A DNA stretch of 64,000 bases from Candidatus Omnitrophota bacterium (GTDB lineage: Bacteria; Omnitrophota; Gorgyraeia; Aquiviventales; Aquiviventaceae). Position numbers and translations under genes: made by a program. The stretch covers positions 8,686 to 72,685 of the forward strand of contig JACPTX010000028.1 in NCBI GenBank assembly GCA_016192545.1. Reading direction: 5' to 3'. Positions within the stretch are counted from its first letter, which is position 1, and each line of letters starts with the position of its first letter. Below the pieces are notes generated by a model. The model did not search any database and was not told where the DNA came from. It was given only the letters and a program-made list of their open reading frames with translations. Positions 3,374-53,694 of this stretch are shown here, one piece after another.

Positions 3374-4156
3374 ATGGGGACATGGCAGATCGTCGGGACC
3401 GCGTGGAGATCGGCCCGCAAAGCCCTGAAGGTGGTCGGGTTCGTCGCGCTGATCCAGCTGGTCCTGGGGCTGTGCGCCCTGCCGCTGGTGGGGAACGATC
3501 CGCAGCCGACCGGTCCGCAGGCGCTGGGGGTGCTGGCTCTGGTGCTGGTCCAATTTTTCCTCCTGCCGCTGATTCAGGGCGGGTGCCTGTCGTTCGCCAA
3601 TGCGACCTTGATCCAGCCGCCCGCGCCGTTTGAGAGTTTCACCCAGGGCGCGAAGCGGATCTACCTCCGCCTCCTGGGGTTTGAGGCGCTGACGCTGGTC
3701 GCGGTGCTGCTGCTGGCGATCCTCGCGGTGGTCTTGTTCGGGCTGGCCTCGCTGCCGGAAGACAACCCCGCGCTGGGGGTGGCGCTGACGGTCCTCGCCG
3801 CCGCGCCGGTCGGGCTGGGGCTGTATCTGCTGTTCCTCATCGTGACCCTGACCCCGCCCGCCATTGCCGCCGAGCCCCTGCGGGTCTTCGCCGCGATCAA
3901 GAAGAGCCTGAAGATCGGGCGCGCCGCGCTGGGCAAGCTCATGCTCCTGACGCTGGCGCTCGGGCTGACGCTCATTCCCGCGATCCTGGTGCCGTGGATC
4001 CCCACCATCGTGCAAGGCGGCGTCGCGCCGGGCCTCGGCACCACGCTGCTGTCGCTGGTCCTCCAGAGCGCGGTCGGGGCGCTGTCCATGCTGCTCTTCG
4101 CCGTCGCCTACGTCCAGCTCTACCGCCAGCGCGCCAACCTCACCTTCGCCCGCTAG
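3374..4156 (+). CDS. polytopic integral membrane protein, function unknown
   Basis: 260 aa, multiple long hydrophobic segments, strong SD (AGGAGGG) upstream. Lies in an operon arrangement with htpX. Confidence 0.6.
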   Translation: MGTWQIVGTAWRSARKALKVVGFVALIQLVLGLCALPLVGNDPQPTGPQALGVLALVLVQFFLLPLIQGGCLSFANATLIQPPAPFESFTQGAKRIYLRLLGFEALTLVAVLLLAILAVVLFGLASLPEDNPALGVALTVLAAAPVGLGLYLLFLIVTLTPPAIAAEPLRVFAAIKKSLKIGRAALGKLMLLTLALGLTLIPAILVPWIPTIVQGGVAPGLGTTLLSLVLQSAVGALSMLLFAVAYVQLYRQRANLTFAR

Positions 4157-4173
4157 GCAAGGAGGATGCTCAC

Positions 4174-5028
4174 ATGAACGTGCTGAAGACCGGATTCTTG
4201 CTGGCGCTCTTGACGGTGCTCCTGGTGTTCCTGGGGCACCTGATGGGCGGGGCCCAGGGGGCGACCTTCGCGTTTGCCTTCGCCCTGGTGATGAACTTCA
4301 TCGCCTACTGGTTCAGCGACAAGATCGTCCTGGCGATGTACCGCGCCAAGCCCCTCGGCGAGGCGGACGCCCCGGCCGTGTATCGGGCGGTGCGCGAGAT
4401 CGCCGCGCGCACCCACATGCCCATGCCGAAGCTCTACTGGATTCCAACCGCCACCCCGAACGCGTTTGCGACCGGCCGCAGCCCCAAGCACGCGGCTGTC
4501 GCCGTCACGTCCGGGCTCTTGGACATCATGGGCGAGGAGGAGCTGAAAGGGGTGCTGGCGCATGAGCTGTCGCACGTGAGAAATCGCGACACGCTCGTCA
4601 TGACGCTGGCCGCGGCGATCGCCGGCGCGATCATGTACCTGGCCCGGATGGCGCAGTGGGCCATGTGGTTCGGCGGCGGCAACCGGGAGCGGAACCGCGG
4701 CTCCGGGGCGCTGCAGCTCGTCGTGCTCCTGCTCATTGCGATTCTCGCCCCGATCGCCGCGATGCTGATCCAATTGGCGATCTCGCGCACGCGCGAATAC
4801 GGCGCGGATGAGACCGGCGCGCGCCTGACCGGCAACCCGTACGGCCTGGCGGATGCGCTGGAGAAGCTGCACCAGGCCGCGCGCGCCCATCCGCTGCCGA
4901 ACGCGAACCCCGCGACGGCGCACCTGTTCATCGTGAATCCCCTGTCGGCCGGCGCGATCGCCAATCTCTTCTCGACGCATCCGCCGGTCGAGGAGCGCGT
5001 CCGCCGCCTGCGCCACATGCGCCTGTAG
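4174..5028 (+). CDS. htpX: zinc metalloprotease HtpX (M48 family)
   Basis: HELSH zinc motif (VLAHELSHVRNRD), N-terminal TM helices, ...EYGADETGA... downstream ligand. RBS AAGGAGG 9 nt upstream of ATG 4174; the ORF-track start at 3994 is upstream out-of-context sequence. Confidence 0.85.
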   Translation: MNVLKTGFLLALLTVLLVFLGHLMGGAQGATFAFAFALVMNFIAYWFSDKIVLAMYRAKPLGEADAPAVYRAVREIAARTHMPMPKLYWIPTATPNAFATGRSPKHAAVAVTSGLLDIMGEEELKGVLAHELSHVRNRDTLVMTLAAAIAGAIMYLARMAQWAMWFGGGNRERNRGSGALQLVVLLLIAILAPIAAMLIQLAISRTREYGADETGARLTGNPYGLADALEKLHQAARAHPLPNANPATAHLFIVNPLSAGAIANLFSTHPPVEERVRRLRHMRL

Positions 5029-5604: not shown

Positions 5605-5642
5605 GATAAGGGAAAGTGGAAACGGGGAGGGGGGAGAAGAGG

Positions 5643-8321
5643 ATGGCTGAGCAGGTGAAGGCGCTTCCCGAGGAGAAGGCCAACGGACAGACGGCGCGGG
5701 GGGGCTTGTCCATCCCTCGCCGCTGGAGCCGCCCCGGTATTCATCCATTCGATGAGATCACCTGGGAATTGCGCACCGCCGCCATCACGAACGAGAAGGG
5801 CGAGGTGGTCTTCGAGCAGAAGGGCGTGGAGGTCCCGAACTTCTGGTCGCAGCTCGCCACCAACGTCGTCGTGTCGAAATACTTCCGCGGCGCGCTGAAC
5901 ACCCCCCAGCGGGAGCGCAGCGTCAAGCAGCTCGTGTCCCGCGTCGCCGACACCATCGCCGGCTGGGGCCTGAAGGACGGCTATTTCGCCACGCCCGAAG
6001 ACGCCGAGACCTTCCGCGCCGAGCTGTCCTACCTCCTCGTCAACCAGTACGCCTCCTTCAACTCGCCGGTGTGGTTCAATGTCGGCATCGAAAAAGAGCG
6101 AGCCCCTCAGTGCAGTGCTTGCTTTATCCTTTCGGTTGAAGACAATATGAACTCCATCCTCGAGTGGTACCGCAACGAGGGGATGATCTTCAAGTACGGC
6201 TCCGGCTCGGGCCTCAACGTCTCGCCCATCCGCTCCTCGCGCGAGAAGCTCGCCGGTGGCGGCACCGCGTCCGGCCCGGTCTCGTTCATGAAAGCGGCCG
6301 ACGCCTCCGCCGGCGTCATCAAGTCCGGCGGAAAAACCAGAAGGGCCGCAAAAATGGTGGTGATGAACGCCGACCACCCGGACATCAAGCCCTTCATCAT
6401 GTGCAAGTGGAAGGAGGAAGAGAAGGCCCACAAGCTCATCGACATCGGTTACGACGCCTCCATTGACGGCGAGGCCTACTCCTCGGTCTTTTTCCAGAAC
6501 GCGAACAACTCGGTCCGCGTGACGGACGACTTCATGAGGCGCGCGCTCGACGACGAGGAGTGGAACCTGCACGCGGTGACCACGGGCGAGATCATGGAGC
6601 GCGTCAAGGCGCGCGACCTCCTGCGCCTCATCGCCGAGGCCGCGTGGCACTGCGGCGACCCCGGCATGCAGTTCGACACGACCATCAACGACTGGCACAC
6701 CTGCCCCAACACCAACCTCGCCTCCATCAACCTCCTGAAGTTCCTCGATGACGAGGGCAACTTCCTGATCGAGCCGTTCAAGTACGCGGTCCAGATCATG
6801 ATCCTCGCGCAGGACATCGTCGTGGACAACTCCTCCTACCCGACGCAGAAGATCGCGGCCAACGCCCATGCCTACCGCGAGCTGGGCCTGGGATTCGCGA
6901 ACCTCGGCGCGCTGCTGATGTCCCTCGGGATCTCCTATGACTCGGACGCCGGGCGCGCCTGGGCCGGGGCGATCACCGCGCTCATGTGCGGCCACGCCTA
7001 CGAAATTTCCAACCGCATTGCGGAGCACCTCGGGCCCTACGAGGGCTTCGCCCGGAATCGGGAGCCGCAGCTCCGCATCCTGCGCAAGCACCGCGCGCAG
7101 GTGGACAAGATCAACCCGCGGCTCGTGCCGCAGCCGCTCCTGTCCGCGTCGGCGCGCGTGTGGGACGAGTCCATCAAACTCGGCGAGCAGTTCGGCGTGC
7201 GCAACTCGCAGGTCACGGTCATCGCCCCGACCGGCACGATCGCGTTCATGATGGACTGCGACACGACGGGCATCGAGCCGGACATCGCGCTCATCAAGTA
7301 CAAGCGGCTCGTCGGCGGCGGGATGCTGAAGATCGTCAACCAGACCGTCTCGAAGGCGTTGCACGTGCTGGGCTACGGGCCTGAGCAGATCGACGAGATT
7401 CTGAAGCACCTCGATGAGAAAGAAACCATCGAGGGCGCCCCGCACCTCAAGCCTGAGCACCTGTCGGTCTTCGACTGCGCCTTCAAGGCCGTCAACGGCA
7501 CGCGCTTCATCCACTACATGGGCCACGTGCGCATGATGGGGGCGGTGCAGCCGTTCATCAGCGGGGCCATCAGCAAGACGGTCAACCTGCCGGAGTCGGC
7601 GAGCGTCGAGGAGATCGCGCAGGCGTACATCGAGTCCTGGAAGCTGGGCCTGAAGGCCGTGGCGGTCTACCGCGACGGCTCCAAGCGCGTCCAGCCGCTC
7701 TCGACCGGCAAGGGCGAGGGCAAGGGCAGGGCGCAGGCGCCGGTCGGCGAGCCGTACCGCCGCCGCCTGCCGGATGAGCGCGACGCGGTCATCCACAAGT
7801 TCTCCCTCGGCGGGCACGAGGGCTACATCACCATCGGCATGTACGAAGACGGCTCGCCCGGCGAGATCTTCATCGTGATGTCGAAGGAGGGCTCGACCCT
7901 CTCCGGCGTGATGGACTCCTTCGCCACCGCGGTGTCGCTCGCCCTGCAGTACGGGGTGCCGCTCAAGGTGCTCATCGACAAGTTCTCGCATGTGCGCTTC
8001 GAGCCCTCGGGCGTGACGAACAACCCAGACATCCGCTTCGCGAAGTCGGTGGTCGACTACATCTTCCGCTGGATGGCGCTGAAGTTCCTCCCGAAGGAGG
8101 AGGCGCAGGAGTTTGCGGTCACAGAAGGGCCGAAAGCCGCGGCGTCCACGGCGGCCCAGCCCTCAACAGGCAACGGGAGCAATCCGCTTGAGCGGCACGA
8201 GAAGCAGACCTTCGTCGCGCAGGCGGATGCTCCCGTCTGTGTGGACTGCGGCTCGCTGATGGTCCGCAACGGCAACTGCTACAAGTGCCTCAACTGCGGG
8301 ACGACCTCAGGGTGTTCGTGA
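5643..8321 (+). CDS. nrdJ: adenosylcobalamin-dependent (class II) ribonucleotide reductase
   Basis: ~890 aa with the conserved catalytic region (...QCSACFILSVEDNMNSI...), monomeric class II architecture and a C-terminal zinc ribbon (CVDCGS...CYKCLNCG). Purine-rich SD precedes ATG 5643; the ORF-track start at 5616 is probably too far upstream. Confidence 0.9.
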   Translation: MAEQVKALPEEKANGQTARGGLSIPRRWSRPGIHPFDEITWELRTAAITNEKGEVVFEQKGVEVPNFWSQLATNVVVSKYFRGALNTPQRERSVKQLVSRVADTIAGWGLKDGYFATPEDAETFRAELSYLLVNQYASFNSPVWFNVGIEKERAPQCSACFILSVEDNMNSILEWYRNEGMIFKYGSGSGLNVSPIRSSREKLAGGGTASGPVSFMKAADASAGVIKSGGKTRRAAKMVVMNADHPDIKPFIMCKWKEEEKAHKLIDIGYDASIDGEAYSSVFFQNANNSVRVTDDFMRRALDDEEWNLHAVTTGEIMERVKARDLLRLIAEAAWHCGDPGMQFDTTINDWHTCPNTNLASINLLKFLDDEGNFLIEPFKYAVQIMILAQDIVVDNSSYPTQKIAANAHAYRELGLGFANLGALLMSLGISYDSDAGRAWAGAITALMCGHAYEISNRIAEHLGPYEGFARNREPQLRILRKHRAQVDKINPRLVPQPLLSASARVWDESIKLGEQFGVRNSQVTVIAPTGTIAFMMDCDTTGIEPDIALIKYKRLVGGGMLKIVNQTVSKALHVLGYGPEQIDEILKHLDEKETIEGAPHLKPEHLSVFDCAFKAVNGTRFIHYMGHVRMMGAVQPFISGAISKTVNLPESASVEEIAQAYIESWKLGLKAVAVYRDGSKRVQPLSTGKGEGKGRAQAPVGEPYRRRLPDERDAVIHKFSLGGHEGYITIGMYEDGSPGEIFIVMSKEGSTLSGVMDSFATAVSLALQYGVPLKVLIDKFSHVRFEPSGVTNNPDIRFAKSVVDYIFRWMALKFLPKEEAQEFAVTEGPKAAASTAAQPSTGNGSNPLERHEKQTFVAQADAPVCVDCGSLMVRNGNCYKCLNCGTTSGCS

Positions 8322-10082: not shown

Positions 10083-10657
10083 TTACTCTTCGAGCAGGGT
10101 ATGGACGGTCTTGTTGAGGATGGCGCCGTCGCGGTCGATCTCGTAGATGATCGGCGCGCCGGTTTCGAGGTTCAGGCCGAGGACTTGCTCCTTAGTGAGT
10201 GTATCGAGGTCCATGACGATGGCACGCAGGCTGTTGCCGTGCGCGACGACGAGCACGGTCTTGCCGGCCTTGACCAGCGGCAGGATCTTCGCGGTGAAGT
10301 AGGGGATGGCGCGCGCGGCGGTGTCCTTGAGGCTCTCGCCCTGCGGCGGGGCGACGTCATAGCTGCGGCCTTGTTCAGCCCCTGCAGGGCGCCGTAGTGC
10401 CGCTCGTTGAGCGCCTGGTCCCGCTCGACGGGGACGTCCGGCTGGCCGACGGCGTCCAGGACGATCTGCAGCGTCTCCTGCGCGCGCGAGAGGGCCGAGG
10501 TGAACGCGCGGTCAATCGCGTAGCGGCGGATGAGCTCCGCGCCCCGGCGGGCCTCCTCGCGCCCCGCGTCGGTCAGGGGCACGTCAATCCAGCCCGTAAA
10601 CCGGTTCTCGAGATTCCATTGCGATTGCCCGTGGCGGATCAAGATGAGTGTCCCCAT
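10083..10657 (-). pseudogene. gpmA: 2,3-bisphosphoglycerate-dependent phosphoglycerate mutase, interrupted by an internal ~47-49-nt deletion/frameshift
   Basis: N-terminal 97 aa ([26 protein letters not shown]...[13 protein letters not shown]) read in one frame. The conserved C-terminal half ([23 protein letters not shown]...[14 protein letters not shown]...) reads in the +1 frame from ~10365. About 16 aa expected between them (AETAAKYGDEQVKIWRR-like) are missing. Confidence 0.7.
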
Positions 10658-10710: not shown

Positions 10711-10738
10711 CTTATTTTCATGATAACACAACTTCGCT

Positions 10739-10775
10739 TGACAAGCGATGCGGACAATGGTAAGAAAGAACCACC
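10739..10775 (+). promoter_or_regulatory. candidate sigma70 promoter for the ddl-like/kamA operon (TTGACA-17-TAAGAA)
   Basis: TTGACA at 10739-10744, 17-nt spacer, TAAGAA. Would give a ~150-nt leader. Confidence 0.3.
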
Positions 10776-10896
10776 AGATGAACACACACGTGATGGCCAC
10801 TCGATCGGTAGACGCTCGCGCGCTCTGTGGTGGAGCGCGTCGGGTGCTCTGACGATCAGTGCATCACCCGTGACACAACTGACCGGTCCAGGGACA

Positions 10897-10925
10897 GGGA
10901 CTCCCAGAGAGTCCCTTTTTGTTTG
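10897..10925 (+). terminator. intrinsic-terminator-like hairpin (GGGACUC-CCAGA-GAGUCCC + UUUUUGUUUG) abutting the ddl-like start codon; candidate attenuator/riboswitch expression platform
   Basis: 7-bp GC-rich stem, 5-nt loop, then a T-rich tract running to ATG 10926. No SD between hairpin and ATG. Confidence 0.45.
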
Positions 10926-11957
10926 ATGGGCTTCCGGGTCGGCTTGACCTACAACGCCAAGAGCGACTACCCGCTGAAGCCCGGCGACCCGCCGGACGCC
11001 AACGCCGAGTTCGACCACGACGACACGATCGGCGTGATTGAAGACGCGATCGCGGCGGGCGGGCACGAGGTCGTGCGCGTCGGCAACGCCCGGCAGGTGC
11101 TCGAGTGGGGCGAGCGGCTGAAGACGCTCGACATCGTCTTCAACATCGCCGAGGGCTATGAGGGGCGCAACCGCGAGTCGCAGGTCCCGATCCTGCTGGA
11201 GATGCTGCGCGTCCCCTTCGTCGGCGGCGACGGGCTGACGCTCGGCGTGACCCTGGACAAGATCATCACGAAGAAGCTCCTGCTCGCCGAGGGGATTCCG
11301 ACGCCGCGCTTCGTCGAATTGACCGACCCGGACCAGAGCTGGTCGGTCGAGTTGCCGTACCCGCTCATCGTCAAGCCGCGCTACGAGGGCTCCAGCAAGG
11401 GCCTGCGCAAGACCTCGCTTGTCACCGGCGCGCAGGAGCTCGCCCAGCAGGCGCGCTGGCTCATCGAGACCTACCGGCAGCCCGCGCTCGTCGAGGAATT
11501 CATCGAGGGGCGCGAGTTCACCGTCGCGCTCATCGGCAACGACCCGCCCGAGGTCCAGCCCGTCGTGCAGATTCAGATCGAAGGCCGGCTCGAGCTGGGG
11601 CGGCTCTTCTACACGTTCGACCACATCCGCTCCGGAGCCGACTACGTCTGCCCGGCGCAGATCGAGGACGGCCTGCGGCGCGAGCTCGAGGCCGTCGCGC
11701 TCAAGACGTATCAGGCGGTCGAGTGCCTCGACTTCGGGCGGGTGGACATCCGGGTGGACCGCGCCGGGCGCGCCTCCGTGCTGGAGATCAACCCGCTGCC
11801 CTCGCTGTCGACCGAGGACGTGTTCTGGTTCGTCGCCAGAGCGCAAGGGATGACCTACGAGGCGATCATCAACAAGGTGCTGGACGCCGCGCTCGCGCGC
11901 TACGGCCTCAAACCCCACAACGAGGGGGCTTCCGTATCAGCCAGACGATCGCGCTGA
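10926..11957 (+). CDS. D-alanine--D-alanine ligase family ATP-grasp protein (paralog 1)
   Basis: Ddl-like N-domain (MGFRVGLTYNAK...) and ATP-grasp core (PLIVKPRYEGSSKG..., EEFIEGREFTV..., ...VDIRVD...SVLEINPLPSL). Confidence 0.75.
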   Translation: MGFRVGLTYNAKSDYPLKPGDPPDANAEFDHDDTIGVIEDAIAAGGHEVVRVGNARQVLEWGERLKTLDIVFNIAEGYEGRNRESQVPILLEMLRVPFVGGDGLTLGVTLDKIITKKLLLAEGIPTPRFVELTDPDQSWSVELPYPLIVKPRYEGSSKGLRKTSLVTGAQELAQQARWLIETYRQPALVEEFIEGREFTVALIGNDPPEVQPVVQIQIEGRLELGRLFYTFDHIRSGADYVCPAQIEDGLRRELEAVALKTYQAVECLDFGRVDIRVDRAGRASVLEINPLPSLSTEDVFWFVARAQGMTYEAIINKVLDAALARYGLKPHNEGASVSARRSR

Positions 11958-12997
11958 CATACAATCTGAAACGCCAGGCGCAGGAAGCCGAGTCGGTGCC
12001 GTTCGACTTCTACTCGGAATTCGACTCGCCGGCCACGCTGGAGGCGATCAGCGGGGCCTTGCGCGCCGCCGGGCATGAGGTGCTTCTCGTCGAGGCCGAC
12101 GAGAGCCTCCCGCGCTGGTTCTTCGAGCATCCCGTCGATCTCGTCTTCAACATCGCCGAGGGCACCGGGGGCCGCCACCGCGAATCGCAGGTGCCGGCCA
12201 TCCTCGAGTCGCTGGGCGTGCCGTTCACCGGATCCGGCAGCACGACGCTCTCCCTCGCTCTCGACAAAGCGCGCACGAAACAGCTCCTGGCCTACGAAGG
12301 CATCCCCACGCCGGCCTGGCAGGTGTTCCGCTCGCCGGATGACCCGCTGGATCCCCGCCTGCAGTTTCCGCTCATCGTCAAGCCCAACCGCGAAGGCTCC
12401 GCCAAGGGCATCATGCGGGAGAACGTCGTGCAGGACGCCTCCGCGCTGCGCCGCCAGGTGCGGCGGGTCTTCGGGCGGTACCGGCAGGAGGTGCTCGTCG
12501 AGGAATTCATCGACGGCCTGGAGCTGACCGTCGGCGTGCTGGGCAACGACGTCCTGCAGGCGCTGCCGATCCTGGAAATCGATTTCGCCGGCTGCGAGCG
12601 GTCCGGGGAATTCTTCTACTCGTGGCGGATGAAGGAGTATGAGGGCAACAAGGAGCTCGGCTTGGACCCGGCGCACCACTGCCCGGCGCGCCTCCCGGCG
12701 GCGACGGCCGCGGCGGTCCAGCGCGTCGCGCTGCGCGTGCACCGGGCGCTGGGCTGCCGGGACCTGTCGCGCACCGACATCCGCCTGCGGCGCGACGGCA
12801 CGCCCTTCGTCCTCGAGATCAACCCGCTGCCCGGACTCTCTCCCCAGGACAGCAATTTTCCGATTATGACCACCGCCGCGGGGATCGCGTATCCCGCGCT
12901 GATCACTCATCTGGTGGGGTTGGCGCTGGCACGGTACCGTCAAGGTGCCCAGCCTCATGAGCTGTCACCGCTCGCGGTGAGCCGGTCAGCTCCCTGA
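11936..12997 (+). CDS. D-alanine--D-alanine ligase family ATP-grasp protein (paralog 2); start codon uncertain
   Basis: Homologous to paralog 1 from ...ISQTIALTYNLK... onward (PLIVKPNREGSAKG, EEFIDGLELTV, RTDIRLRRDGTPFVLEINPLPGL). No in-frame ATG/GTG/TTG near the conserved N-terminus. The frame opens at 11723 inside paralog 1; an ATC at 11936 is the nearest candidate. Confidence 0.65.
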   Translation: MSQTIALTYNLKRQAQEAESVPFDFYSEFDSPATLEAISGALRAAGHEVLLVEADESLPRWFFEHPVDLVFNIAEGTGGRHRESQVPAILESLGVPFTGSGSTTLSLALDKARTKQLLAYEGIPTPAWQVFRSPDDPLDPRLQFPLIVKPNREGSAKGIMRENVVQDASALRRQVRRVFGRYRQEVLVEEFIDGLELTVGVLGNDVLQALPILEIDFAGCERSGEFFYSWRMKEYEGNKELGLDPAHHCPARLPAATAAAVQRVALRVHRALGCRDLSRTDIRLRRDGTPFVLEINPLPGLSPQDSNFPIMTTAAGIAYPALITHLVGLALARYRQGAQPHELSPLAVSRSAP

Positions 12998-13026
12998 GGG
13001 ATGGGCGAGAAGGAGGGGCGTCTCCG

Positions 13027-14202
13027 GTGAACGTGGAAGCGTATCGGCGTATTCCCGTTTGGAAGGATGTGCCTCTGGAGGAATGGGAAACGTACGGATG
13101 GCAGATGCGTCACCGCATCACCACCGTCGAGCAGCTGCGGCAGGTCATCCACGTGACCCCGTCCGAAGAGGCGGCGGTCACGAAGCGGGACGGCCGCTTC
13201 ATCATGGGCATCCCGCCGTACTGGGCGGCGCTGATGGACCCGGACGACCCGACCTGCCCGATCCGGCGGCAGGCGGTGCCGCTGGAGGAGGAATACTACA
13301 CGAGCCCCAACGATCTGGTGGATCCGCTGGCCGAGGACAGCCACATGCCGGTCCCGGGCCTGGTGCACCGCTATCCGGACCGGGTGCTGCTCCTGGTCGT
13401 CGAGGTCTGCTCGATGTACTGCCGGTTCTGCACGCGCAGCCGCGTCGTCGGCACGAGCGCGGGGTTTTCCCGCGGCGCGAACATCGATGCCGCCATCGAC
13501 TACATCCGCAGCCACCGCAAGATCCGCGACGTGCTGATCTCCGGCGGCGATCCGCTGACGCTGTCGGATGAGCGGCTCGACGAGATCCTGGCCAAGCTCA
13601 AGGCGATCCCGCACGTCGAGTTCGTCCGCATCGGCACGCGCAACCCGGTGACCCTGCCGTACCGGGTGACCGAGTCGCTGTGCAGCGTCCTGAAGAAGCA
13701 CAAGCCGATCTGGATGAGCGTCCACTTCAACCACCCCAAGGAAGTGACGCCGGCCGTCAAGCGCGCCTGCGGGATGCTGGCGGACAGCGGCGTGCCGCTC
13801 GGGTCCCAGACGGTGCTGCTCAAGGGCATCAACGACCGGCCCGCGATCATGAAGAAGCTCTTCCATGAGCTGTTGAAGAGCCGGGTGCGGCCGTACTACA
13901 TCTATCAGTGCGATCCGGTGCGCGGGACCTCGCACTTCCGCACGACGGTCGCGACGGGCGTGCAGATCCTCGAGAAGCTGCGCGGGCACACGACCGGCTA
14001 CGCGGTGCCGACGTTCGTGGTGGACGCGCCGGGCGGCGGCGGCAAGATCCCCGTCATGCCCAGCTACGTCGTGTCGTACAAGCCGGGCGAGGTCGTCCTG
14101 CGCAACTACGCCGGCAAGGTCTACACGTATAAAGAGGAAGTGGGGACGGACGAGCGCGCAAAAGCCCCGCTGGCCGAGCCGTCCTACGCGCTCGCCGACT
14201 AA
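13027..14202 (+). CDS. KamA-family radical SAM aminomutase (lysine 2,3-aminomutase-like)
   Basis: CxxxCxxC radical-SAM motif in KamA context (...VCSMYCRFCTRS...), a GGDPL motif and a KamA-type C-terminal region. Confidence 0.85.
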   Translation: MNVEAYRRIPVWKDVPLEEWETYGWQMRHRITTVEQLRQVIHVTPSEEAAVTKRDGRFIMGIPPYWAALMDPDDPTCPIRRQAVPLEEEYYTSPNDLVDPLAEDSHMPVPGLVHRYPDRVLLLVVEVCSMYCRFCTRSRVVGTSAGFSRGANIDAAIDYIRSHRKIRDVLISGGDPLTLSDERLDEILAKLKAIPHVEFVRIGTRNPVTLPYRVTESLCSVLKKHKPIWMSVHFNHPKEVTPAVKRACGMLADSGVPLGSQTVLLKGINDRPAIMKKLFHELLKSRVRPYYIYQCDPVRGTSHFRTTVATGVQILEKLRGHTTGYAVPTFVVDAPGGGGKIPVMPSYVVSYKPGEVVLRNYAGKVYTYKEEVGTDERAKAPLAEPSYALAD

Positions 14203-14232
14203 GCCCTCCGGGTTGTCGCGGTGGGGTACCCT

Positions 14233-14278
14233 CGACCCTTGACATCCCAGAGGGTGACTCGCGGGATGTCAAGGGTCG
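14233..14278. terminator. perfect 16-bp inverted repeat (CGACCCTTGACATCCC / GGGATGTCAAGGGTCG, 14-nt spacer) after kamA; terminator or operator
   Basis: rc(14233-14248) equals 14263-14278 exactly. Followed by TTTCTCT. Contains TTGACA and the candidate ATG (14266) of the next gene. Confidence 0.4.
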
Positions 14279-14850
14279 TTTCTCTGATGATGAGACTCTC
14301 TCAGCTCATGATGGCGGTGGCCTTGTGCGGGATGGCCGGCTGCAGCCCGCCGGGCCAGTCCGAGAAGCTGCGCAAGGAAGTGCTCAGCGCCGATCCGCCC
14401 TTTGCCAAGGTCCTGGACCGGCGCGATGAGCTGGCCGACAAGATCACGCTCCTCCAGCGGGAGCTGGCCTTGAAGAAGAGCACGGTCGAGCGCCGGGTCG
14501 CCCAGCTGCGCGCCGAACTGCGCGAGGCGAAGCGCGAGGTCGCGCAGAAAGTCCGGCAGACCGCGGTGCAGCTGAAGCCGGAACAGGAGCGGGTCGAGCT
14601 GGCCGTCGGGAGGGCGGCGGAAGAGCTCAAGACCAAGCGGGCGCATCGCGACGGGCTCGCGCGCTCCATCAGCCGGATCCGCAAGGCGCTGGGGGACAAG
14701 AGCGCGACGTGGACGGCAGCCGACCGCTCCCGCCTGGCCCAGGAACTCGACGACCTGGCGCGGGAAACGCAGCGCCTTGACCAGGAGCTGGCCGTCCTCG
14801 CCAAGCACCTCCGCCTCCTGAAGGCCAAGCGCCTCCTCCTCCGTCTATAG
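14266..14850 (+). CDS. coiled-coil lipoprotein (lipobox ...LCGMAGC)
   Basis: Signal peptide plus lipobox Cys, then long Arg/Glu/Leu-rich coiled-coil. Alternative start ATG 14287. Confidence 0.55.
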   Translation: MSRVVSLMMRLSQLMMAVALCGMAGCSPPGQSEKLRKEVLSADPPFAKVLDRRDELADKITLLQRELALKKSTVERRVAQLRAELREAKREVAQKVRQTAVQLKPEQERVELAVGRAAEELKTKRAHRDGLARSISRIRKALGDKSATWTAADRSRLAQELDDLARETQRLDQELAVLAKHLRLLKAKRLLLRL

Positions 14851-25356: not shown

Positions 25357-25440
25357 TGCCGGGGGTGGGAATCGAACCCACATGACCTTTCGGTCACGGG
25401 TTTTTGAGACCCGCGCGTATACCGGTTCCGCCACCCCGGC
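25357..25440 (-). tRNA. tRNA-Leu (anticodon CAA), type II with long variable arm, CCA not encoded
   Basis: Reverse complement folds as acceptor GCCGGGG/CCCCGGC, anticodon stem-loop CGGGU-CUCAAAA-ACCCG, extra arm GUGACCGAAAGGUCA, T-arm GUGGG-UUCGAUU-CCCAC. Confidence 0.85.
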
Positions 25441-27689: not shown

Positions 27690-27766
27690 TGGTGGAGCAG
27701 ACGGGGATCGAACCCGTGGCCTCGTGTATGCCATACACGCGCTCTCCCAGGCTGAGCTACTGCCCC
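27690..27766 (-). tRNA. tRNA-Ala (anticodon GGC), CCA encoded
   Basis: Reverse complement gives GGGGCAG-UA-GCUC-AGCCUGGGA-GAGC-G-CGUGU-AUGGCAU-ACACG-AGGCC-ACGGG-UUCGAUC-CCCGU-CUGCUCC-ACCA. G3:U70 identity pair present. Confidence 0.85.
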
Positions 27767-42133: not shown

Positions 42134-42195
42134 GAGTCTCCTTTGTGGGGTGCGCAGACTCTACCACGCTCCCCCGTCGCTGTCAACCCCGTGAG

Positions 42196-43782
42196 ATGAC
42201 GGCCGCCTCCGACCACGCGCGCATCGCGGCCTCCACGCGGGCTATCTCCCTGGCCACCGCCGCCAGCCGCATCCTCGGCTTCATCCGGGATCTGCTCATC
42301 GCGAAGCTGTTCGGCACCGGCATCCAGGCGCAGGCGTTCGTCGTCGCGTTCCGCCTGCCGAACCTCTTCCGCGATCTCGTCGCGGAGGGCGCGATGACGG
42401 CGGCGGTCGTGCCGGTCCTCAGCGCCTATCGCGCGACCCGGTCCGCGCAGGACTTCTGGCGCCTCGCGCAGGCGACGGCGGTGCGCGTGCTCGTGCTCGT
42501 CGGCGTGCTGATGATCCTCGGGGCCGCGTGCGCGCCGTGGCTGGTGACCGTCGTGGCGCCGGGCTTCGTGTCGGAGCCGGAGAAATTCGCGCTGACCGTG
42601 CAGGTGACCCGCGTCCTGTTTCCCTTCATCCTGCTCGTCGCGCTCTGGGCGTTTTTCTGCGGCCTGCTGAACACCCTCCGTCAGTTTGCGGTTCCCGCGC
42701 TGGGCCCGGCGGTCCTGAACGTCGTCGTGATCGCGGGCTGCCTGTGGGTGGCTCCGCGCGTGAACCCGCCGGTGCTGGGGGTGGCGTGGGCGGTGATGGC
42801 GGGCGGGCTGGCGCAGCTGCTCATGCAGCTGCCCGTGGCCTCGGCGCACGGATTCCGGTGGCGGTGGGTCTGGCGCCACCCCGACGGCGGTCGGGGCGAG
42901 GTCATGCGGCTGCTCACCCCGAGACTGCTCGGGGCGGCGGTCTATCAGGTCAGCGTGCTGTTCAACACGATGCTGGCGTCGCTCGGAGCGCTGGCCGGGG
43001 AGGGGGCGGTGGCCGCGCTGTATTTCGCCAACCGCCTCGTGCAGCTGCCGCTGGCGCTCTTCGCGACCTCCTCGGCGCAGGCCAGCCTCCCCCATCTGTC
43101 CGAGCGCGCGGCCGTCAACGATCTCGCGGAATTCCGCGCGACCCTCGTCACGGTGCTGCGGATAGTGCTGTTCGAGAGCCTGCCGGCGGCGGTCGGGTTG
43201 ATGGCGCTGTCAGCGCCCATCGTGCAGGTCTGTTTCGAGCGCGGGGCCTTTGACCGCGGTGCGACCGTGATGACCGCGCAGACCCTGGTGTGGCTGGCGC
43301 TCGGCCTCATCGCCTATGCGGCAGGGCGCGTGCTCACCGGCGCGTTCTACGCCCTGCAGGACACCGCCACGCCGGTGAAGCTCGCGATGGAGGCGCTGGT
43401 CGTGAATGTCGTGCTGGCGGTCCTGTTCCTCAAGCCGATGCAGGTCGGCGGGCTGGCGCTCGCGACGGCGCTGTCCAGCAGCCTCAACGCGTGGCGGCTG
43501 CTGGCGATGTTGGAACGCCGGCTCGGCGAGCCGCTCGTGCCGCACCTCCTCCGGCCCGCCCTGCGCATGGGCCTGGCGGCGGCGGCCATGGGAGCGGGCT
43601 GCGCGCTGGCCTGGCAGCGGCTGGCCCCGGTCATCCCGCCGCTCGCCGCGTTGTCCGTCATCATCCCTGGTGGTATCATGCTCTATGGGACGATCAGCTG
43701 CCTGATCGGCGTCGAGGAATGCTCCGCCGCCCTCCGATGGCTCGCCCGGCTCGTCACCCGCCAGCCCTCCTCGCGCGCGTAA
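42196..43782 (+). CDS. murJ: lipid II flippase MurJ (MviN)
   Basis: 14-TM MOP-superfamily protein with MurJ N-terminal signature (...ILGFIRDLLIAKLFGTG...AFVVAFRLPNLFRDL...). Confidence 0.85.
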   Translation: MTAASDHARIAASTRAISLATAASRILGFIRDLLIAKLFGTGIQAQAFVVAFRLPNLFRDLVAEGAMTAAVVPVLSAYRATRSAQDFWRLAQATAVRVLVLVGVLMILGAACAPWLVTVVAPGFVSEPEKFALTVQVTRVLFPFILLVALWAFFCGLLNTLRQFAVPALGPAVLNVVVIAGCLWVAPRVNPPVLGVAWAVMAGGLAQLLMQLPVASAHGFRWRWVWRHPDGGRGEVMRLLTPRLLGAAVYQVSVLFNTMLASLGALAGEGAVAALYFANRLVQLPLALFATSSAQASLPHLSERAAVNDLAEFRATLVTVLRIVLFESLPAAVGLMALSAPIVQVCFERGAFDRGATVMTAQTLVWLALGLIAYAAGRVLTGAFYALQDTATPVKLAMEALVVNVVLAVLFLKPMQVGGLALATALSSSLNAWRLLAMLERRLGEPLVPHLLRPALRMGLAAAAMGAGCALAWQRLAPVIPPLAALSVIIPGGIMLYGTISCLIGVEECSAALRWLARLVTRQPSSRA

Positions 43783-50632: not shown

Positions 50633-52156
50633 TTGATCTTGGCGCTCAGTAGCGCCGCGCTCCTCGTCGTGTCCTTCCCGAATGTCAACCAGCCGTACTG
50701 CGCGTGGGTCGCGCTGGTGCCGTGGCTGGTGCTGCTCCAAAAAGTGCCCTCTTTAGCGGCGTTCGGGTGGTCGTGGCTGACCGGCTTCCTTTTTTTCCTC
50801 GGCTCGCTGTGGTGGCTCGTACATCTGACGGCCTTCGGCGGCCCGGCGGCGATCCTCGGCTGGCTCGCGCTGTGCGCCTACCTCGCGCTGTACTTCGGCG
50901 TATTTGGGTGGGTCGTTCAACGTTTCACGTTGCACGTTTCACGTTTCGCGCAGTTGTTACTCGTTCCTTCTGCATGGGTGGCACTCGAATATCTGCGCAG
51001 CCACCTCCTCTCAGGATTCGGCTGGAACCTCCTGGGCTATTCCCAGACGCCGGCGCTGTCGGCGATTCAGATGGCGGATCTCACCGGCGTATGGGGCGTG
51101 TCGTTCGTGCTCGTGCTGATGAACGCCGGCATCGCGCAGTACCTCACGGAGCAGGACCGCCGGCGGCGCGTGATCGGCGTGCTCATCGGCATCGGGGCGG
51201 TGGCGGCCATGTGGCAGTACGGCACGTGGCGGCTGGGCCAGACGTTCCAGGGCCCGCCGGCCCGGATCGCCGTCGTGCAGGGCAACATCCCGCAGCAGGA
51301 GAAGTGGGACGAGGCGTTTGAGGCCGCCATCCTGGAACGGTATGCGCGGCTGACGCGCCAGGCCGCCCAACAGGGGCCGCAGCTCGTCGTCTGGCCCGAG
51401 ACCTCGGTGCCCGGATATTTGGGACTCGATGAGGCGTTGACGGACCAGGTGAGTTTCTTGGCGCGCAGCGTGAAGATCCCGTTGCTGGTCGGCGCGCCGA
51501 TGGGCGTGTTTCGAGGTGAGCGGTGGGCTCTGACCAACAGCGCGGCCCTGCTCGAGGCCGACGGGGCGCCGTTGGAATCGGCCGCGCCGTGGCTGCGCGC
51601 CATCCTGCCGCCGATCGGCGAGTTCGTGCCGGGCCACGAGTTCACGGTCTTCAGACTCGGCCGTTCAAGGTTCAAGGTTCTAGGTTCTAGGCCAGACCTT
51701 GAACCTTCAACCTCGAACCTCGAACTGGCGTTTAGCGTGTTGGTCTGTTTCGAAGACGTCTTCCCGGAGCTGGCCCGCCGGTTCGTCCGGCGCGGCGCGC
51801 GGCTGCTGATGACCATCACGAACGACGCGTGGTTCGGCAAGACGGCCGCGGCCTACCAGCATGCCCAGGCCTCGACCTTCCGGGCGGTCGAGCTGCGCGT
51901 ACCCATGGTGCGGGCCGCCAACACCGGCTGGTCCGGCTGCATTGATGCCCACGGCCGGTGGGTCGCCAGCGTCAAGGACGCCGCAGGGCAGGAGCTCTTC
52001 ACGGAGGGCGTGGCGCTCTGCGAGGTGGCGGCGGGTGACGCCGACCCCGCCTTCGGCGAGGCAGGGACTCCCTACCGGCGCTGGGGGGACTGGTTCGCCT
52101 GGCTGTGCGTGCTGGGATGCCTTGGCTGGGCAATTTTTGCTATAATGAAACGTTAA
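50633..52156 (+). CDS. lnt: apolipoprotein N-acyltransferase
   Basis: N-terminal multi-TM domain and CN-hydrolase domain with a catalytic-Cys region (...SVLVCFEDVFPE...). No ATG/GTG near the conserved N-terminus, so TTG 50633 (MILALSSAALLVVSFP...) was chosen; start uncertain. Confidence 0.8.
   Translation: MILALSSAALLVVSFPNVNQPYCAWVALVPWLVLLQKVPSLAAFGWSWLTGFLFFLGSLWWLVHLTAFGGPAAILGWLALCAYLALYFGVFGWVVQRFTLHVSRFAQLLLVPSAWVALEYLRSHLLSGFGWNLLGYSQTPALSAIQMADLTGVWGVSFVLVLMNAGIAQYLTEQDRRRRVIGVLIGIGAVAAMWQYGTWRLGQTFQGPPARIAVVQGNIPQQEKWDEAFEAAILERYARLTRQAAQQGPQLVVWPETSVPGYLGLDEALTDQVSFLARSVKIPLLVGAPMGVFRGERWALTNSAALLEADGAPLESAAPWLRAILPPIGEFVPGHEFTVFRLGRSRFKVLGSRPDLEPSTSNLELAFSVLVCFEDVFPELARRFVRRGARLLMTITNDAWFGKTAAAYQHAQASTFRAVELRVPMVRAANTGWSGCIDAHGRWVASVKDAAGQELFTEGVALCEVAAGDADPAFGEAGTPYRRWGDWFAWLCVLGCLGWAIFAIMKR
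50915..50949. repeat. five tandem heptamers GTTNNRC (GTTCAAC GTTTCAC GTTGCAC GTTTCAC GTTTCGC) within lnt
   Basis: Direct heptamer array, also readable as two ACGTTTCACGTT 12-mers. Encodes ...VQRFTLHVSRFAQ... Confidence 0.4.
51664..51725. repeat. palindromic heptamer-array element (GTTCAAG/GTTCTAG x4 - CCAGAC - CTTGAAC/CTCGAAC x4) inserted in-frame in lnt just upstream of the catalytic-Cys region
   Basis: Left GTTCAAGGTTCAAGGTTCTAGGTTCTAGG, right CTTGAACCTTCAACCTCGAACCTCGAAC. Encodes ...RLGRSRFKVLGSRPDLEPSTSNLELAF... between conserved ...GHEFTVF and SVLVCFED. Confidence 0.55.
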
Positions 52157-52170
52157 CCCTCTCTATTCCC

Positions 52171-53694
52171 GTGGCTTCCAACGACCAAACCGTCAACCGG
52201 CGCGACAAATTTGACGCTCTCAAGCGGCAGGGGCGTTCGCCATTCGACCAGCGGCGCTTCCACAAGGGAGAGTCTATTCGCGAACTGGTCAACAGCTTCA
52301 CGCCGGAGACGCTCGTCGTCTCAACTGCGGGGCGTCTGAGCGCGATCCGCGGCCACGGCGGGCTGATCTTCGGAGATCTGCGGGACGCCACCGGCAAGAT
52401 TCAGATTTCAGTCAAGCGGGACGCGGTCGGAGAGACGGCGTGGTCGCTCTTTGAGCACCTGGATCTCGGGGACATCATCGGCGTCACCGGTCCGCTGTTC
52501 AAGACCAAGACCGGCGAGGTGACGGTCGCCGTGGACTCCGTCACCCTGCTGGCGAAAGCCCTACGGCCGATGCCGGAGAAATGGCACGGGCTGAAGGATG
52601 TCGAGGTCCGCTACCGCAAGCGGTATTTGGACCTCATCGCCAACGAGCCGGTGCGCCGGGTATTCGAGCAGCGCGCGCGCCTGCTGGCGAGTTTGCGCCG
52701 GACGCTGGACGCGGGCGGGTTCCTGGAAGTCGAAACGCCCATGATGCACGCCATCCCGGGCGGGGCGGCAGGGGAGCCGTTCGTCACGCACCATAAGGCG
52801 CTGGACGTGGACCTCTATATGCGGCTGGCTCCGGAGCTGCACCTGAAGCGGCTCCTGGTCGGCGGCTTCGACCGCGTCTATGAGATGAACCGGTCGTTCC
52901 GCAACGAGGGCATTTCGAGCCGGCACAACCCCGAGTTCACCATGCTCGAGGCCTACCAGGCCTACTGGGACTGTCGGGATATGATGGAGCTGGTGGAGCG
53001 CCTCATCAAGCAGGCCGCGCAGGACGTGCTGGGGACGCTGACGTTCCAGTACCAGGAGCGGACCATTGACTTGTCGCCGTCTGGGTCCTGGCCGAAGTTG
53101 TCGTTTACCGAGACCATGCAACAGCTTGGCTTGTCACCCGATTCGTCACAGGAACAGATTCAGCGCGTCTTGGAAAAGAAGGGCATCAAGCTCAAGGGAC
53201 TGACGCGCTCCCAGCTCGTGCGGCTCACCGAGCAGCTGATCGAGCAGTTCGTCGAACCGCAGTCCACGCGGTTCCCGCTCTTCGTCGTGGACTACTGGAC
53301 CGAGCTGTCGCCGCTGGCCAAGAGCAAAGCGGACAACCCGCTGGTGGCGGACCGCTTCGAGCTGTTCATCGGCGGGATGGAAGTCGCCAACGCGTACTCC
53401 GAGCAGAACGACCCCATCGAGCAGCGCCGCCGCTTCGAGGCGCAAAGACGAGAGCGCGTTCAAGGTTCAAGGGTGAAGGTTCAAGGGAAAAACCTCGAAC
53501 CTCGAACCTTGAACCTTGAACGGCAGATTGATGAGGACTTCCTTGAAGCGCTGGAATACGGGATGCCGCCGGCTGGCGGGCTTGGCGTCGGCGTGGACCG
53601 GCTCGCGATGCTCCTGTTCAATCAACCCTCGATCAAGGATGTCATCCTGTTCCCGTTATTAAAGCCCAGCGAGGGGTCCCGTGATGCCGTATGA
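52171..53694 (+). CDS. lysS: lysyl-tRNA synthetase (class II)
   Basis: OB anticodon-binding N-domain (...GHGGLIFGDLRD...) and class II motifs 1-3 (...FLEVETPMMH..., ...FRNEGISSRHNPEFTMLE..., ...GGLGVGVDRL...). Start taken as GTG 52171 (VASNDQTVNRRDKF...) just after the lnt stop; uncertain. Confidence 0.85.
   Translation: MASNDQTVNRRDKFDALKRQGRSPFDQRRFHKGESIRELVNSFTPETLVVSTAGRLSAIRGHGGLIFGDLRDATGKIQISVKRDAVGETAWSLFEHLDLGDIIGVTGPLFKTKTGEVTVAVDSVTLLAKALRPMPEKWHGLKDVEVRYRKRYLDLIANEPVRRVFEQRARLLASLRRTLDAGGFLEVETPMMHAIPGGAAGEPFVTHHKALDVDLYMRLAPELHLKRLLVGGFDRVYEMNRSFRNEGISSRHNPEFTMLEAYQAYWDCRDMMELVERLIKQAAQDVLGTLTFQYQERTIDLSPSGSWPKLSFTETMQQLGLSPDSSQEQIQRVLEKKGIKLKGLTRSQLVRLTEQLIEQFVEPQSTRFPLFVVDYWTELSPLAKSKADNPLVADRFELFIGGMEVANAYSEQNDPIEQRRRFEAQRRERVQGSRVKVQGKNLEPRTLNLERQIDEDFLEALEYGMPPAGGLGVGVDRLAMLLFNQPSIKDVILFPLLKPSEGSRDAV
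53458..53521. repeat. palindromic heptamer-array element (GTTCAAG x4 - AAAAA - CTCGAAC/CTTGAAC x4) inserted in-frame in lysS between motif-3-proximal conserved blocks
   Basis: Left GTTCAAGGTTCAAGGGTGAAGGTTCAAGGG, right CCTCGAACCTCGAACCTTGAACCTTGAAC. Encodes ...RERVQGSRVKVQGKNLEPRTLNLE..., ~12-15 aa more than the usual spacing between ...QRRRFEAQ... and ...DEDFLEALEYG... Confidence 0.55.

Follow-up and report, generated by a model that had tools for sequence, protein, structure and literature searches.

Enzymes of the KamA family make beta-lysine or other beta-amino acids, and ATP-grasp enzymes of the Ddl family ligate amino acids into dipeptides. Lysine rearrangement and amide ligation follow one another in the synthesis of pyrrolysine, in which the radical S-adenosylmethionine (SAM) enzyme PylB rearranges lysine and the Ddl-like ATP-grasp enzyme PylC joins the product to an amine. 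A comparable logic applies to elongation factor P (EF-P), for which EpmB, a KamA paralogue, supplies beta-lysine and a second enzyme, EpmA, ligates it to an amine. Here we describe an operon (10926-14202, forward strand) in which two tandem genes for ATP-grasp ligases of the Ddl superfamily, referred to as AG1 and AG2, are followed by a gene of the KamA family. The operon lies in a 64,000-nucleotide (nt) stretch of a metagenome-assembled genome of Candidatus Omnitrophota, an uncultured and widespread phylum of very small cells; this whole stretch, which has a GC content of 67%, is called the window below.

The nearest analogies to this operon (pyrrolysine, beta-lysylation of EF-P, and negamycin) differ from it in composition, distribution, and leader. 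The pyrrolysine pathway shares with it a radical-SAM rearrangement of lysine that precedes a Ddl-like amide ligation, but PylB is not a KamA-family enzyme, pylD, pylS, and pylT are absent here, there are two ligases rather than one, and no sequence relation of the AG proteins to PylC was detected among solved structures. EpmA is a paralogue of lysyl-tRNA synthetase, whereas the ligases here are of the ATP-grasp type; moreover, the KamA protein is not of the EpmB type and no efp gene is linked to it. In the negamycin cluster, beta-lysine formation is co-located with ATP-grasp amide ligases (bioRxiv 10.1101/2025.05.27.656397). Clusters of that type are sporadic, are found in actinomycetes, and contain tailoring enzymes, whereas the genes described here make up a three-gene unit within housekeeping synteny that extends through the phylum. 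A full-text search of the literature returned no description of an aminomutase/ATP-grasp cluster or of a beta-lysine pathway of this kind, and an earlier sequence-only reading of this DNA likewise knew of no described pathway with this composition. What we appear to have is known enzyme logic in an undescribed, phylum-wide operon that carries an undescribed regulatory RNA. The reading that we consider most likely, and hold with moderate confidence, is that the operon, under the control of transcription attenuation, specifies the synthesis of beta-lysine and then its amide ligation in one or two ATP-dependent steps.

The aminomutase and the two ATP-grasp ligases

The third gene of the operon (13027-14202) begins with a GTG codon after GAAGGAGGGG, and its start has a strong Shine-Dalgarno (SD) sequence. 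Its product of 391 residues matches the Pfam families Radical_SAM and LAM_C, the latter over 56 of its 127 positions, and passes the KamA family model TIGR00238 (361 bits; cut-off, 199), as expected from the KamA-like gene that the sequence-only reading had placed here. With the equivalog model for lysine 2,3-aminomutase (TIGR03820) it scores 513.9 bits and does not reach the cut-off of 525.4, a narrow miss of 11 bits that we attribute to its shorter C-terminus. Scores with the models for glutamate 2,3-aminomutase (456 bits; cut-off, 650) and arginine 2,3-aminomutase (408 bits; cut-off, 600) are lower, and the score with the EpmB model TIGR03821 (247.7 bits; cut-off, 369.3) is far under the threshold.

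Alignment with the lysine 2,3-aminomutase of Clostridium subterminale (PDB 2A5H) is gapless over 367 residues, with 55% identity. The radical-SAM motif CxxxCxxC (CSMYCRFC) and the lysine that carries pyridoxal phosphate (K337, in GGGGK) are conserved, and so are all three of the lysine-binding residues R134, D293, and D330 (2A5H numbering), which hold the carboxylate and the epsilon-amino group of lysine. In glutamate 2,3-aminomutase, both of these aspartates are replaced. The protein thus has the motifs and residues of KamA/AblA enzymes (2A5H and the AblA of methanogens), with beta-lysine as the expected product, and differs from them in its length (391 residues, as compared to 416) and in its partners, which are ATP-grasp ligases rather than AblB or the enzymes of lysine fermentation. 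These comparisons give good support to its identification as a lysine 2,3-aminomutase that depends on radical SAM and pyridoxal phosphate and whose C-terminus is shortened.

The first two genes, AG1 (10926-11957; 343 residues) and AG2 (11936-12997; 353 residues), encode proteins that are 42% identical to each other and that both match Pfam Dala_Dala_lig_C (E 1e-35 and 5e-37, respectively); the two tandem ATP-grasp paralogues recognized in the sequence-only reading are therefore real members of this family. All of their nearest relatives among solved structures and curated models are Ddl or Van ligases, and they are 28% and 31% identical to DdlB of Escherichia coli (PDB 2DLN). With the Ddl subfamily model NF002378, however, AG1 (161.7 bits) and AG2 (191.7 bits) both score under the cut-off of 243, and they fall even further under the cut-offs of all other Ddl and Van models. 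The Pfam RimK match of the ligases is only 20 bits. (Note that AG1 is 100% identical to an NCBI entry annotated as "ATP-grasp domain-containing protein".)

In an alignment of 14 AG sequences, the DdlB residues K97, K144, E180, E187, R255, D257, E270, and N272 are invariant, a set that covers the ATP-binding lysines, the adenine-binding glutamate, the Mg-binding D/E/N residues, and the catalytic arginine. By contrast, the residues with which DdlB binds its two D-alanines (E15, K215/Y216, and S281/L282) are not conserved in AG1, and AG2 retains only the Lys/Tyr-like pair. Solved relatives align with the AG proteins from about residue 55 on; the first 55-60 residues have no counterpart in Ddl and form an acidic segment specific to the family (TYNxK...DPPDxNAEFD). 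Because the catalytic residues are kept and the D-alanine-binding residues are lost, both proteins appear to be active ligases that act on something other than D-alanine. AG1 and AG2 thus share with the Ddl and Van ligases the ATP-grasp fold and the residues for ATP, Mg, and catalysis, and differ from them in the D-Ala1 and D-Ala2 sites, in the N-terminus, and in the absence of a mur/fts context. These differences, together with the model scores, speak against the possibility, raised in the sequence-only reading, that the pair consists of a genuine Ddl and a paralogue in a MurF context.

Conservation and neighbourhood of the three genes

When one genome per species was scanned, at least 587 stretches were found to encode relatives of AG1, and the best 80 of these were taken as the locus set. 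(Individual loci are denoted by L-numbers, and the taxon labels of related loci are those of the record titles.) The best 80 are Omnitrophota records, or third-party annotation assemblies that are labelled Planctomycetales or Planctomycetia and have the same synteny. The order AG1-AG2-KamA on one strand was found in 70 of 70 Omnitrophota loci that were long enough, in genomes with GC contents from 37 to 68%, which we divide below into high-GC (the clade of the window), mid-GC, and low-GC clades. The junctions within the triad are short or overlapping, and often consist of an overlap of stop and start codons.

The association extends beyond this phylum. An exhaustive profile-free search returned 971 cluster representatives (E<=1e-30), many of them proteins of 550-790 residues with two ATP-grasp halves, and named relatives of the AG proteins outside Omnitrophota come from Elusimicrobiota, Verrucomicrobiae, Acidobacteriota, and Myxococcota. 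Further contexts were obtained from 80 additional metagenome loci, found with an alignment of six sequences as the query (one of 20 sequences was too divergent). The genes occur as AG1-AG2-KamA, as a single AG1-type gene followed by KamA, and as an AG gene followed after 4-5 kb by KamA-AG; an AG...KamA arrangement is also present in Elusimicrobiota. In addition, a KamA-AG-AG-GNAT cassette is found in an Acidobacteriota genome (L085, 6883-10500) and in at least 12 metagenome loci (for example L123, L131, L152, L153, L157-L160, and L163-L165). The GNAT acetyltransferase of this cassette has no match to the AblB model; RimI gives its best score, though one below the cut-off. Beyond the four genes of these cassettes, no transporters or tailoring enzymes recur. 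The KamA proteins of these contexts belong to the same short subfamily as that of the window (511-515 bits with TIGR03820). KamA lies inside the locus in 48 of 86 of these loci, and 22 of the 38 loci without it are shorter than 6 kb. The neighbourhood analysis that the sequence-only reading had proposed as a check thus finds the association of KamA with these ligases in several phyla and with several arrangements of the genes, and the persistence of this linkage through changes of order and phylum is strong evidence for a joint function. Moreover, the ligase that accompanies KamA in single-ligase loci is always of the AG1 type, which makes AG1 the likelier user of beta-lysine.

These findings bear on the idea that the triad merely brings together unrelated neighbours, that is, ordinary D-Ala-D-Ala ligase paralogues and a KamA that serves lysine fermentation or some other separate role. 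Some sources do annotate relatives of the AG proteins as "D-alanine-D-alanine ligase". However, the two ligases are below all Ddl cut-offs and have lost the residues of the D-Ala site, the linkage to KamA survives changes of order across phyla, the three genes share a promoter-leader region and a 3' hairpin (see below), and a gene-context scan of the related loci revealed none of the lysine-fermentation genes kamDE, kdd, kce, and kal near the operon. We rejected ordinary Ddl paralogues beside an unrelated KamA on account of the scores, the D-Ala residues, and the gene order kept in 70 of 70 loci, and regard independent roles for these neighbours as barely credible.

In six loci (L084, L086, L128, and L148-L150), a sister subfamily consists of two AG2-like halves, in tandem or fused (680-720 residues), that are followed by a Peptidase_S58 gene and are not accompanied by KamA. 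Peptidase_S58 is the DmpA/BapA family, which acts on D- and beta-aminoacyl peptides. The adjacency of related fused ligases to such a peptidase would fit a role in the cell envelope, in which a beta-lysine dipeptide or side branch enters peptidoglycan precursors, much as the products of Ddl, VanA, and the enterococcal D-aspartate ligase do. The exclusively Ddl or Van character of the nearest solved and curated relatives points the same way, as does the presence of a MurJ gene in the window, and conservation throughout the phylum would suit a structural role. Yet none of the loci examined links a mur, ddl, fts, or pbp gene to the triad, the D-alanine-binding residues are lost, and beta-lysine is not known to occur in any peptidoglycan. 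We therefore consider an envelope function to be quite unlikely.

Directly upstream of AG1 and on the same strand, 21 Omnitrophota loci contain a gene for a small membrane protein with a mechanosensitive-channel transmembrane-helix domain (PF05552), at a median gap of 74 nt (these include L012, L017, L019, L025, L026, L031, L033, L042, L044, L051-L053, L058, L061, and L065). In the mid-GC clade, the last codons and the stop codon of this gene (…GGAGGTAG) coincide with a conserved GGAGG box of the leader. The presence of a channel-like gene at this place is consistent with the synthesis of a compatible solute, a zwitterionic beta-lysine derivative that would protect against osmotic or other stress and whose charge the ligases would neutralize, as acetylation does in N-epsilon-acetyl-beta-lysine. 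In favour of such a solute, the KamA protein scores highest with a model for AblA that was built on the osmolyte pathway, and the cassettes of other phyla include a GNAT acetyltransferase. On the other hand, most genomes that bear the operon come from groundwater or fresh water (according to record titles), Omnitrophota loci lack the acetyltransferase and the GNAT found elsewhere does not match AblB, and two ATP-dependent ligations would be costly for a bulk solute. Taken together, these observations make a compatible solute an unlikely product.

Downstream of the operon, in L032, L041, L054, L076, and 20 further low-GC loci, genes for an EF-G paralogue (651 residues) and for a protein of 233 residues that matches only the C-terminal domain of YchF come after KamA on the same strand, at 40-470 nt. 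In L087, rpsU follows the operon. Such genes invite the thought that the ligases place the beta-lysine made by KamA on a lysine or a terminus of a protein, as in the modification of EF-P, with ATP-grasp enzymes in place of EpmA. There is precedent both for the supply of beta-lysine to a protein (by EpmB) and for protein modification by ATP-grasp enzymes (RimK and LysX); the cassette GNAT has its best match, though below the cut-off, to RimI; and conservation throughout the phylum fits a core function. Nevertheless, the KamA protein is of the KamA/AblA type rather than the EpmB type (514 bits as compared to 248 bits). The known members of the Ddl type act on small molecules, with the protein modifiers in other subfamilies (as noted, the RimK match is 20 bits), and the nearby translation genes belong to a long stretch of housekeeping synteny. 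No efp gene is present in the 64-kb window or in 166 related loci (about 1.8 Mb). We consider protein modification very unlikely; a role of KamA in EF-P modification only, a possibility that the sequence-only reading had itself named, is likewise contradicted by the EpmB score (248 bits; cut-off, 369) and the absence of a linked efp gene.

The flanks of the operon are of two types. In type A, genes for ribonucleotide reductase (RNR), dcd, ogg, and gpm lie upstream and pabB, pabC, purH, and folC lie downstream; in type B, genes for M20, PAC2, HAD, HypE-like, and UPF0280 proteins lie upstream and those for the EF-G paralogue, ychF, purH, and folC lie downstream. Both are housekeeping genes in long synteny and thus say little about the function of the operon. 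(Note that the class II RNR gene upstream contains insertions of 1.1-1.2 kb at residue 169 that look like inteins in L002, at about 1795-2876, in L018, at about 1319-2400, and also in L105; L018 has a second insertion near residue 550, at about 3635-4869, and the RNR gene of the window, 5616-8321, is uninterrupted.) In the window, gpmA (gpm; phosphoglycerate mutase) is divergent from the operon (10083-10657, reverse strand) and is disrupted: the frame that shows homology changes between about 10364 (...QGLNKAA) and 10367 (RSYDVAPP...), and about 16 residues of its orthologues are absent. An independent Logan contig has the same 5' part. The change of frame and the missing residues indicate an internal deletion with a frameshift, so that gpmA is either a pseudogene or the result of an assembly error. 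Elsewhere, the window contains two tRNA genes (25357-25440, and 27693-27766 on the reverse strand), the gene for the lipid II flippase MurJ (42145-43782), and a gene for a class II aminoacyl-tRNA synthetase of the Asp/Lys/Asn type (52105-53694), whose anticodon-binding domain shows that it is not a truncated, EpmA-like form. The remaining genes are of the housekeeping kind (LeuRS, UvrD, ComEC, a release factor, SecA, Lnt, and a ClpC-like protein).

Leader RNA, start codons, and the 3' end

Known terminator riboswitches and leader-peptide attenuators have a promoter, a structured leader, and a terminator before the first gene, and the operon shares this layout. Its sigma-70-type promoter (10738-10766) comprises a -35 box, TTGACA (10738-10743), a 17-nt spacer with TG at 10758-10759, and a -10 box, TAAGAA (10761-10766). 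The promoter is conserved upstream of AG1: high-GC loci have TTGACA-N14/15-TGnTA(A/C)(G/A)AA, and their low-GC counterparts have TTGACA-...TGTGATAAAAAA. In the window, the leader is roughly 150 nt long and ends with a hairpin and U-tract of the intrinsic-terminator type (10896-10925). The hairpin, AGGGACTC-CCAGA-GAGTCCCT (10896-10916), has an 8-bp stem and a 5-nt loop; the U-tract, TTTTTGTTTG, runs from the hairpin to the ATG of AG1 (10926), and no purine-rich SD sequence precedes this ATG. In both promoter and hairpin we thus find what the sequence-only reading had described. Because the upstream gene gpm is divergent, the hairpin is not its terminator and lies in the 5' untranslated region of the operon.

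A pattern scan found a hairpin and U-tract that end at most 60 nt upstream of AG1 in 56 of the 80 loci, when 0.034 would be expected per locus; the median gap between the end of the terminator stem and the AG1 start is 18 nt. The stems differ by clade yet stay paired (GGGACUC/GGGUCCC, AGGGCUC/GAGCCCU, and AGAGGGGC/GCCCCUCU). The predicted intrinsic terminator thus lies downstream of the promoter and ahead of the first start codon and recurs in orthologues, as in a transcription attenuator.

Between the promoter and the terminator lies a structured element of 96 nt (10787-10882), which RNAalifold, applied to 14 loci of the window's clade, folds into one long stem-loop followed by the conserved tail CCGUGACACAACUGA. 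The stem-loop has three helices: P1 (10790-10795/10862-10867), P2 (about 10802-10812/10847-10857), and P3 (10817-10825/10833-10841). Its apical loop (CUGYGGYGGA) and its 3' tail ((G/U)UGA(C/G/A)ACAAC) are conserved. In the 14 sequences, 94% of the cells are paired, as compared to about 42% when the partners are slid (slid controls range from 30 to 48%), and 14 pairs show compensatory changes; the observed values were reached in none of 500 shuffles. A covariance model (R1) built from 12 sequences scores 94.3 bits on the element of the window. It detects the element in 22 loci, of which 10 are not in the model, and in each case immediately upstream of AG1; on neither strand of the 1.8 Mb searched does R1 have another match of comparable score, only low-scoring ones at chance level (E above 0.001). 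In a set of 21 sequences, compensatory changes are seen at 15 of 26 pairs, with a covariation score of 0.455 as compared to at most 0.12. Consistent with these results, the leader of the window folded as a single sequence gives the same element and the terminator (z = -3.2). The sequence-only reading had held its proposal of leader-mediated control open to challenge by a lack of conserved structure in orthologous loci; instead, covariation is plain in the window's clade.

This earlier proposal, of control by attenuation or a riboswitch, gains support from the conserved leader terminator and the structured RNA, and none from the known riboswitch families: Rfam 15 gave no match at the gathering score in the window, in the leader, or in eight loci, and the leaders had only chance-level matches at E values up to 10. 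A riboswitch is thus one option among several. The leader also differs from described riboswitches and attenuators in that we found neither a conserved antiterminator nor a run of regulatory codons in it. In most relatives, 5-6 bp can form between the 5' arm of P2 and the 5' arm of the terminator, but in the window P2 is GAUCG/CGAUC and this pairing is lost, so that as a conserved antiterminator the candidate pairing of these two arms fails in the window itself. In KamA-first cassettes of other phyla, no common leader motif or terminator was found, and R1 has no match there.

Two short open reading frames (ORFs) may be translated in the leader. Possible ORF 1, MNTHVMATRSVDARALCGGARRVL (10778-10852; 24 codons), begins about 11 nt downstream of the -10 box and covers the loop and the 5' arm of the element, up to a TGA stop in the 3' arm of P2. 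Among 14 aligned loci, 13 keep it open, with 24-25 codons and the same aligned stop, and L016 has a stop codon within it. In unpaired columns its third codon positions are slightly more variable (1.53 bits, as compared to 1.0 and 0.79 bits). Possible ORF 2, VTQLTGPGTGTPRESLFV (10870-10926; GTG start, 18 codons), crosses the terminator hairpin, and its TGA overlaps the ATG of AG1 (TGATG). In nine of 10 high-GC loci, this frame is open from a conserved (G/T)TG for 18-27 codons and closes 2-10 nt ahead of the ATG of AG1; in the tenth it ends 19 nt before that ATG. Translation of ORF 2 could couple to the SD-less start of AG1 and oppose formation of the hairpin. We rejected a single leader ORF that runs through the terminator in all clades, since such an ORF is present in the high-GC clade and part of the mid-GC clade, whereas only about half of the low-GC loci have one, with two frames in use.

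The low-GC leaders do not contain the stem-loop and carry short conserved sequence boxes instead. In L027-L081, within the region from about 150 to 60 nt ahead of AG1, the -10 box is spanned by an inverted repeat, AATATTGTG...CACAATATT, and both halves of this palindrome change together in some loci. Moreover, AGGAGG, 13 nt, and then AUUGGAAAAA are found in low-GC leaders, and of 30 occurrences in about 1 Mb, 28 lie between -77 and -102 relative to AG1; AUUGGAAAAA often opens a mini-ORF of 3-5 codons, such as UUG GAA AAA UAG, that ends 11-14 nt before the terminator. Among the leaders compared, no one sensing mechanism valid in all clades was found.

What, then, might the leader respond to? 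By default, transcription would stop at the terminator and the region of the AG1 start would be occluded, and the signal for read-through could be a metabolite, a protein, or ribosomes on the two short leader ORFs. It is quite conceivable, if somewhat short of an even chance, that the leader is not a metabolite riboswitch at all, and is instead an independent small RNA gene, a protein-binding leader, or an attenuator controlled by ribosomes through the leader ORFs. The rod-like shape of the element, one stem-loop in place of a junction of several helices, would fit this alternative, as would the two ORFs open in the window's clade, the second of which ends on the AG1 start, and, in low-GC leaders, the palindrome over the -10 box and the mini-ORFs of the AGGAGG-13 nt-AUUGGAAAAA arrangement close to the terminator. 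It is harder to reconcile with the lack of a regulatory codon run, with the inconsistency of the ORFs across clades, and with the fact that the unit is always attached to AG1. Moreover, the compensatory change in P2 of the window removes the SD-like GAGGA of its relatives, which favours selection on pairing rather than on ribosome binding.

The start of AG2 is also unusual. The AG2 frame overlaps the 3' end of AG1 by 22 nt and begins, after GAGGGGG, at an ATC codon (11936); there is no canonical start at this position, and the automatic gene call had placed the start at a GTG (11996). In all 17 high-GC loci, the only start candidate at the point at which the conserved protein sequence sets in is ATC (ATA in one locus), a purine-rich stretch lies 7-10 nt ahead of it, and the codons that follow (ALTYNLK) vary synonymously. 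Five of these 17 loci have an in-frame TGA 4-6 codons upstream of it, and the AG1 stop is always embedded in codons 7-8 of AG2 (junctions of L002-L022; 11922-11957 in the window). In low-GC relatives, AG2 starts with an ATG right after the AG1 stop. A programmed -1 frameshift from AG1 into AG2 was rejected, since the overlap region of 33-39 nt contains no slippery heptamer, and initiation at AUC is preferred for this reason. The conserved AUC thus appears to be a non-canonical start codon of AG2, a rare case in which non-canonical initiation has comparative support.

At the other end of the operon, a perfect 16-bp inverted repeat with a 14-nt loop (14233-14278; arms 14233-14248 and 14263-14278), noted already in the sequence-only reading, begins 31 nt after the KamA stop. 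GC-rich perfect inverted repeats lie 1-51 nt after the KamA stop in about 18 loci, mainly of the high- and mid-GC clades, and within 30 nt in 15 of them; these repeats are unrelated in sequence, and some are followed by U-rich tracts. The hairpin after KamA is likely to be the 3' end of the operon. With a conserved promoter, a structured leader, a leader terminator, and this 3' hairpin, the three genes form one transcription unit as judged from sequence. (The 3' arm of the repeat covers the ATG, at 14266, of the next gene, 14266-14850, which encodes a predicted lipoprotein whose signal peptide ends in ...GMAGC; a long region of this protein is charged and probably forms a coiled coil, the protein matches no family, and identity to its orthologues is only 25-46%.)

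Proposed pathway and significance

In the pathway that we favour, KamA would convert L-lysine into beta-lysine, a step that the sequence supports well. In an ATP-dependent reaction that proceeds through an acyl-phosphate, AG1 would then link beta-lysine to a partner by an amide bond, as suggested by the chemistry of its family and the linkage to KamA, and AG2 would add a second amide bond, which would give a small di- or tri-(pseudo)peptide of beta-lysine. Of the beta-lysine peptide pathway put forward in the sequence-only reading, the aminomutase, the non-Ddl ligases, their linkage, and the leader have gained support, and the product itself, a beta-lysine peptide, is still something that we infer.

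Several observations weigh against this pathway and its control by attenuation. The KamA protein is 11 bits below the curated cut-off for lysine 2,3-aminomutase, with a shortened C-terminal domain; the second substrate of the ligases cannot be read from the sequence; and the neighbouring genes, being housekeeping genes in long synteny, are little informative on function. Conservation throughout the phylum, in genomes from fresh water and groundwater, would be unusual for a dispensable secondary metabolite. As for the leader, the element is confined to the high-GC clade and the low-GC relatives carry a different one, and no antiterminator pairing is kept across loci, the one possible in most relatives being lost in the window.

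A bolder version, which we offer tentatively and think rather doubtful, is that a beta-lysine metabolite is core to Omnitrophota, either as a building block of the envelope or as a protein modification installed by ATP-grasp enzymes. The leader would then be a new class of sensor (a riboswitch, or an attenuator based on a nascent peptide or the ribosome) for lysine, beta-lysine, or the end product, and the AUC start of AG2 would set the ratio of the enzymes.

The leader is a regulatory RNA with strong covariation and no counterpart in Rfam, and knowledge of its ligand would help to identify the product of the pathway. The enzymes are small and soluble, which makes the pathway readily testable, and the AG ligases would define a new substrate class among Ddl-like enzymes. 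The presence of the triad in essentially every Omnitrophota lineage, together with the cassettes in Acidobacteriota and Elusimicrobiota, points to an undescribed beta-lysine compound.

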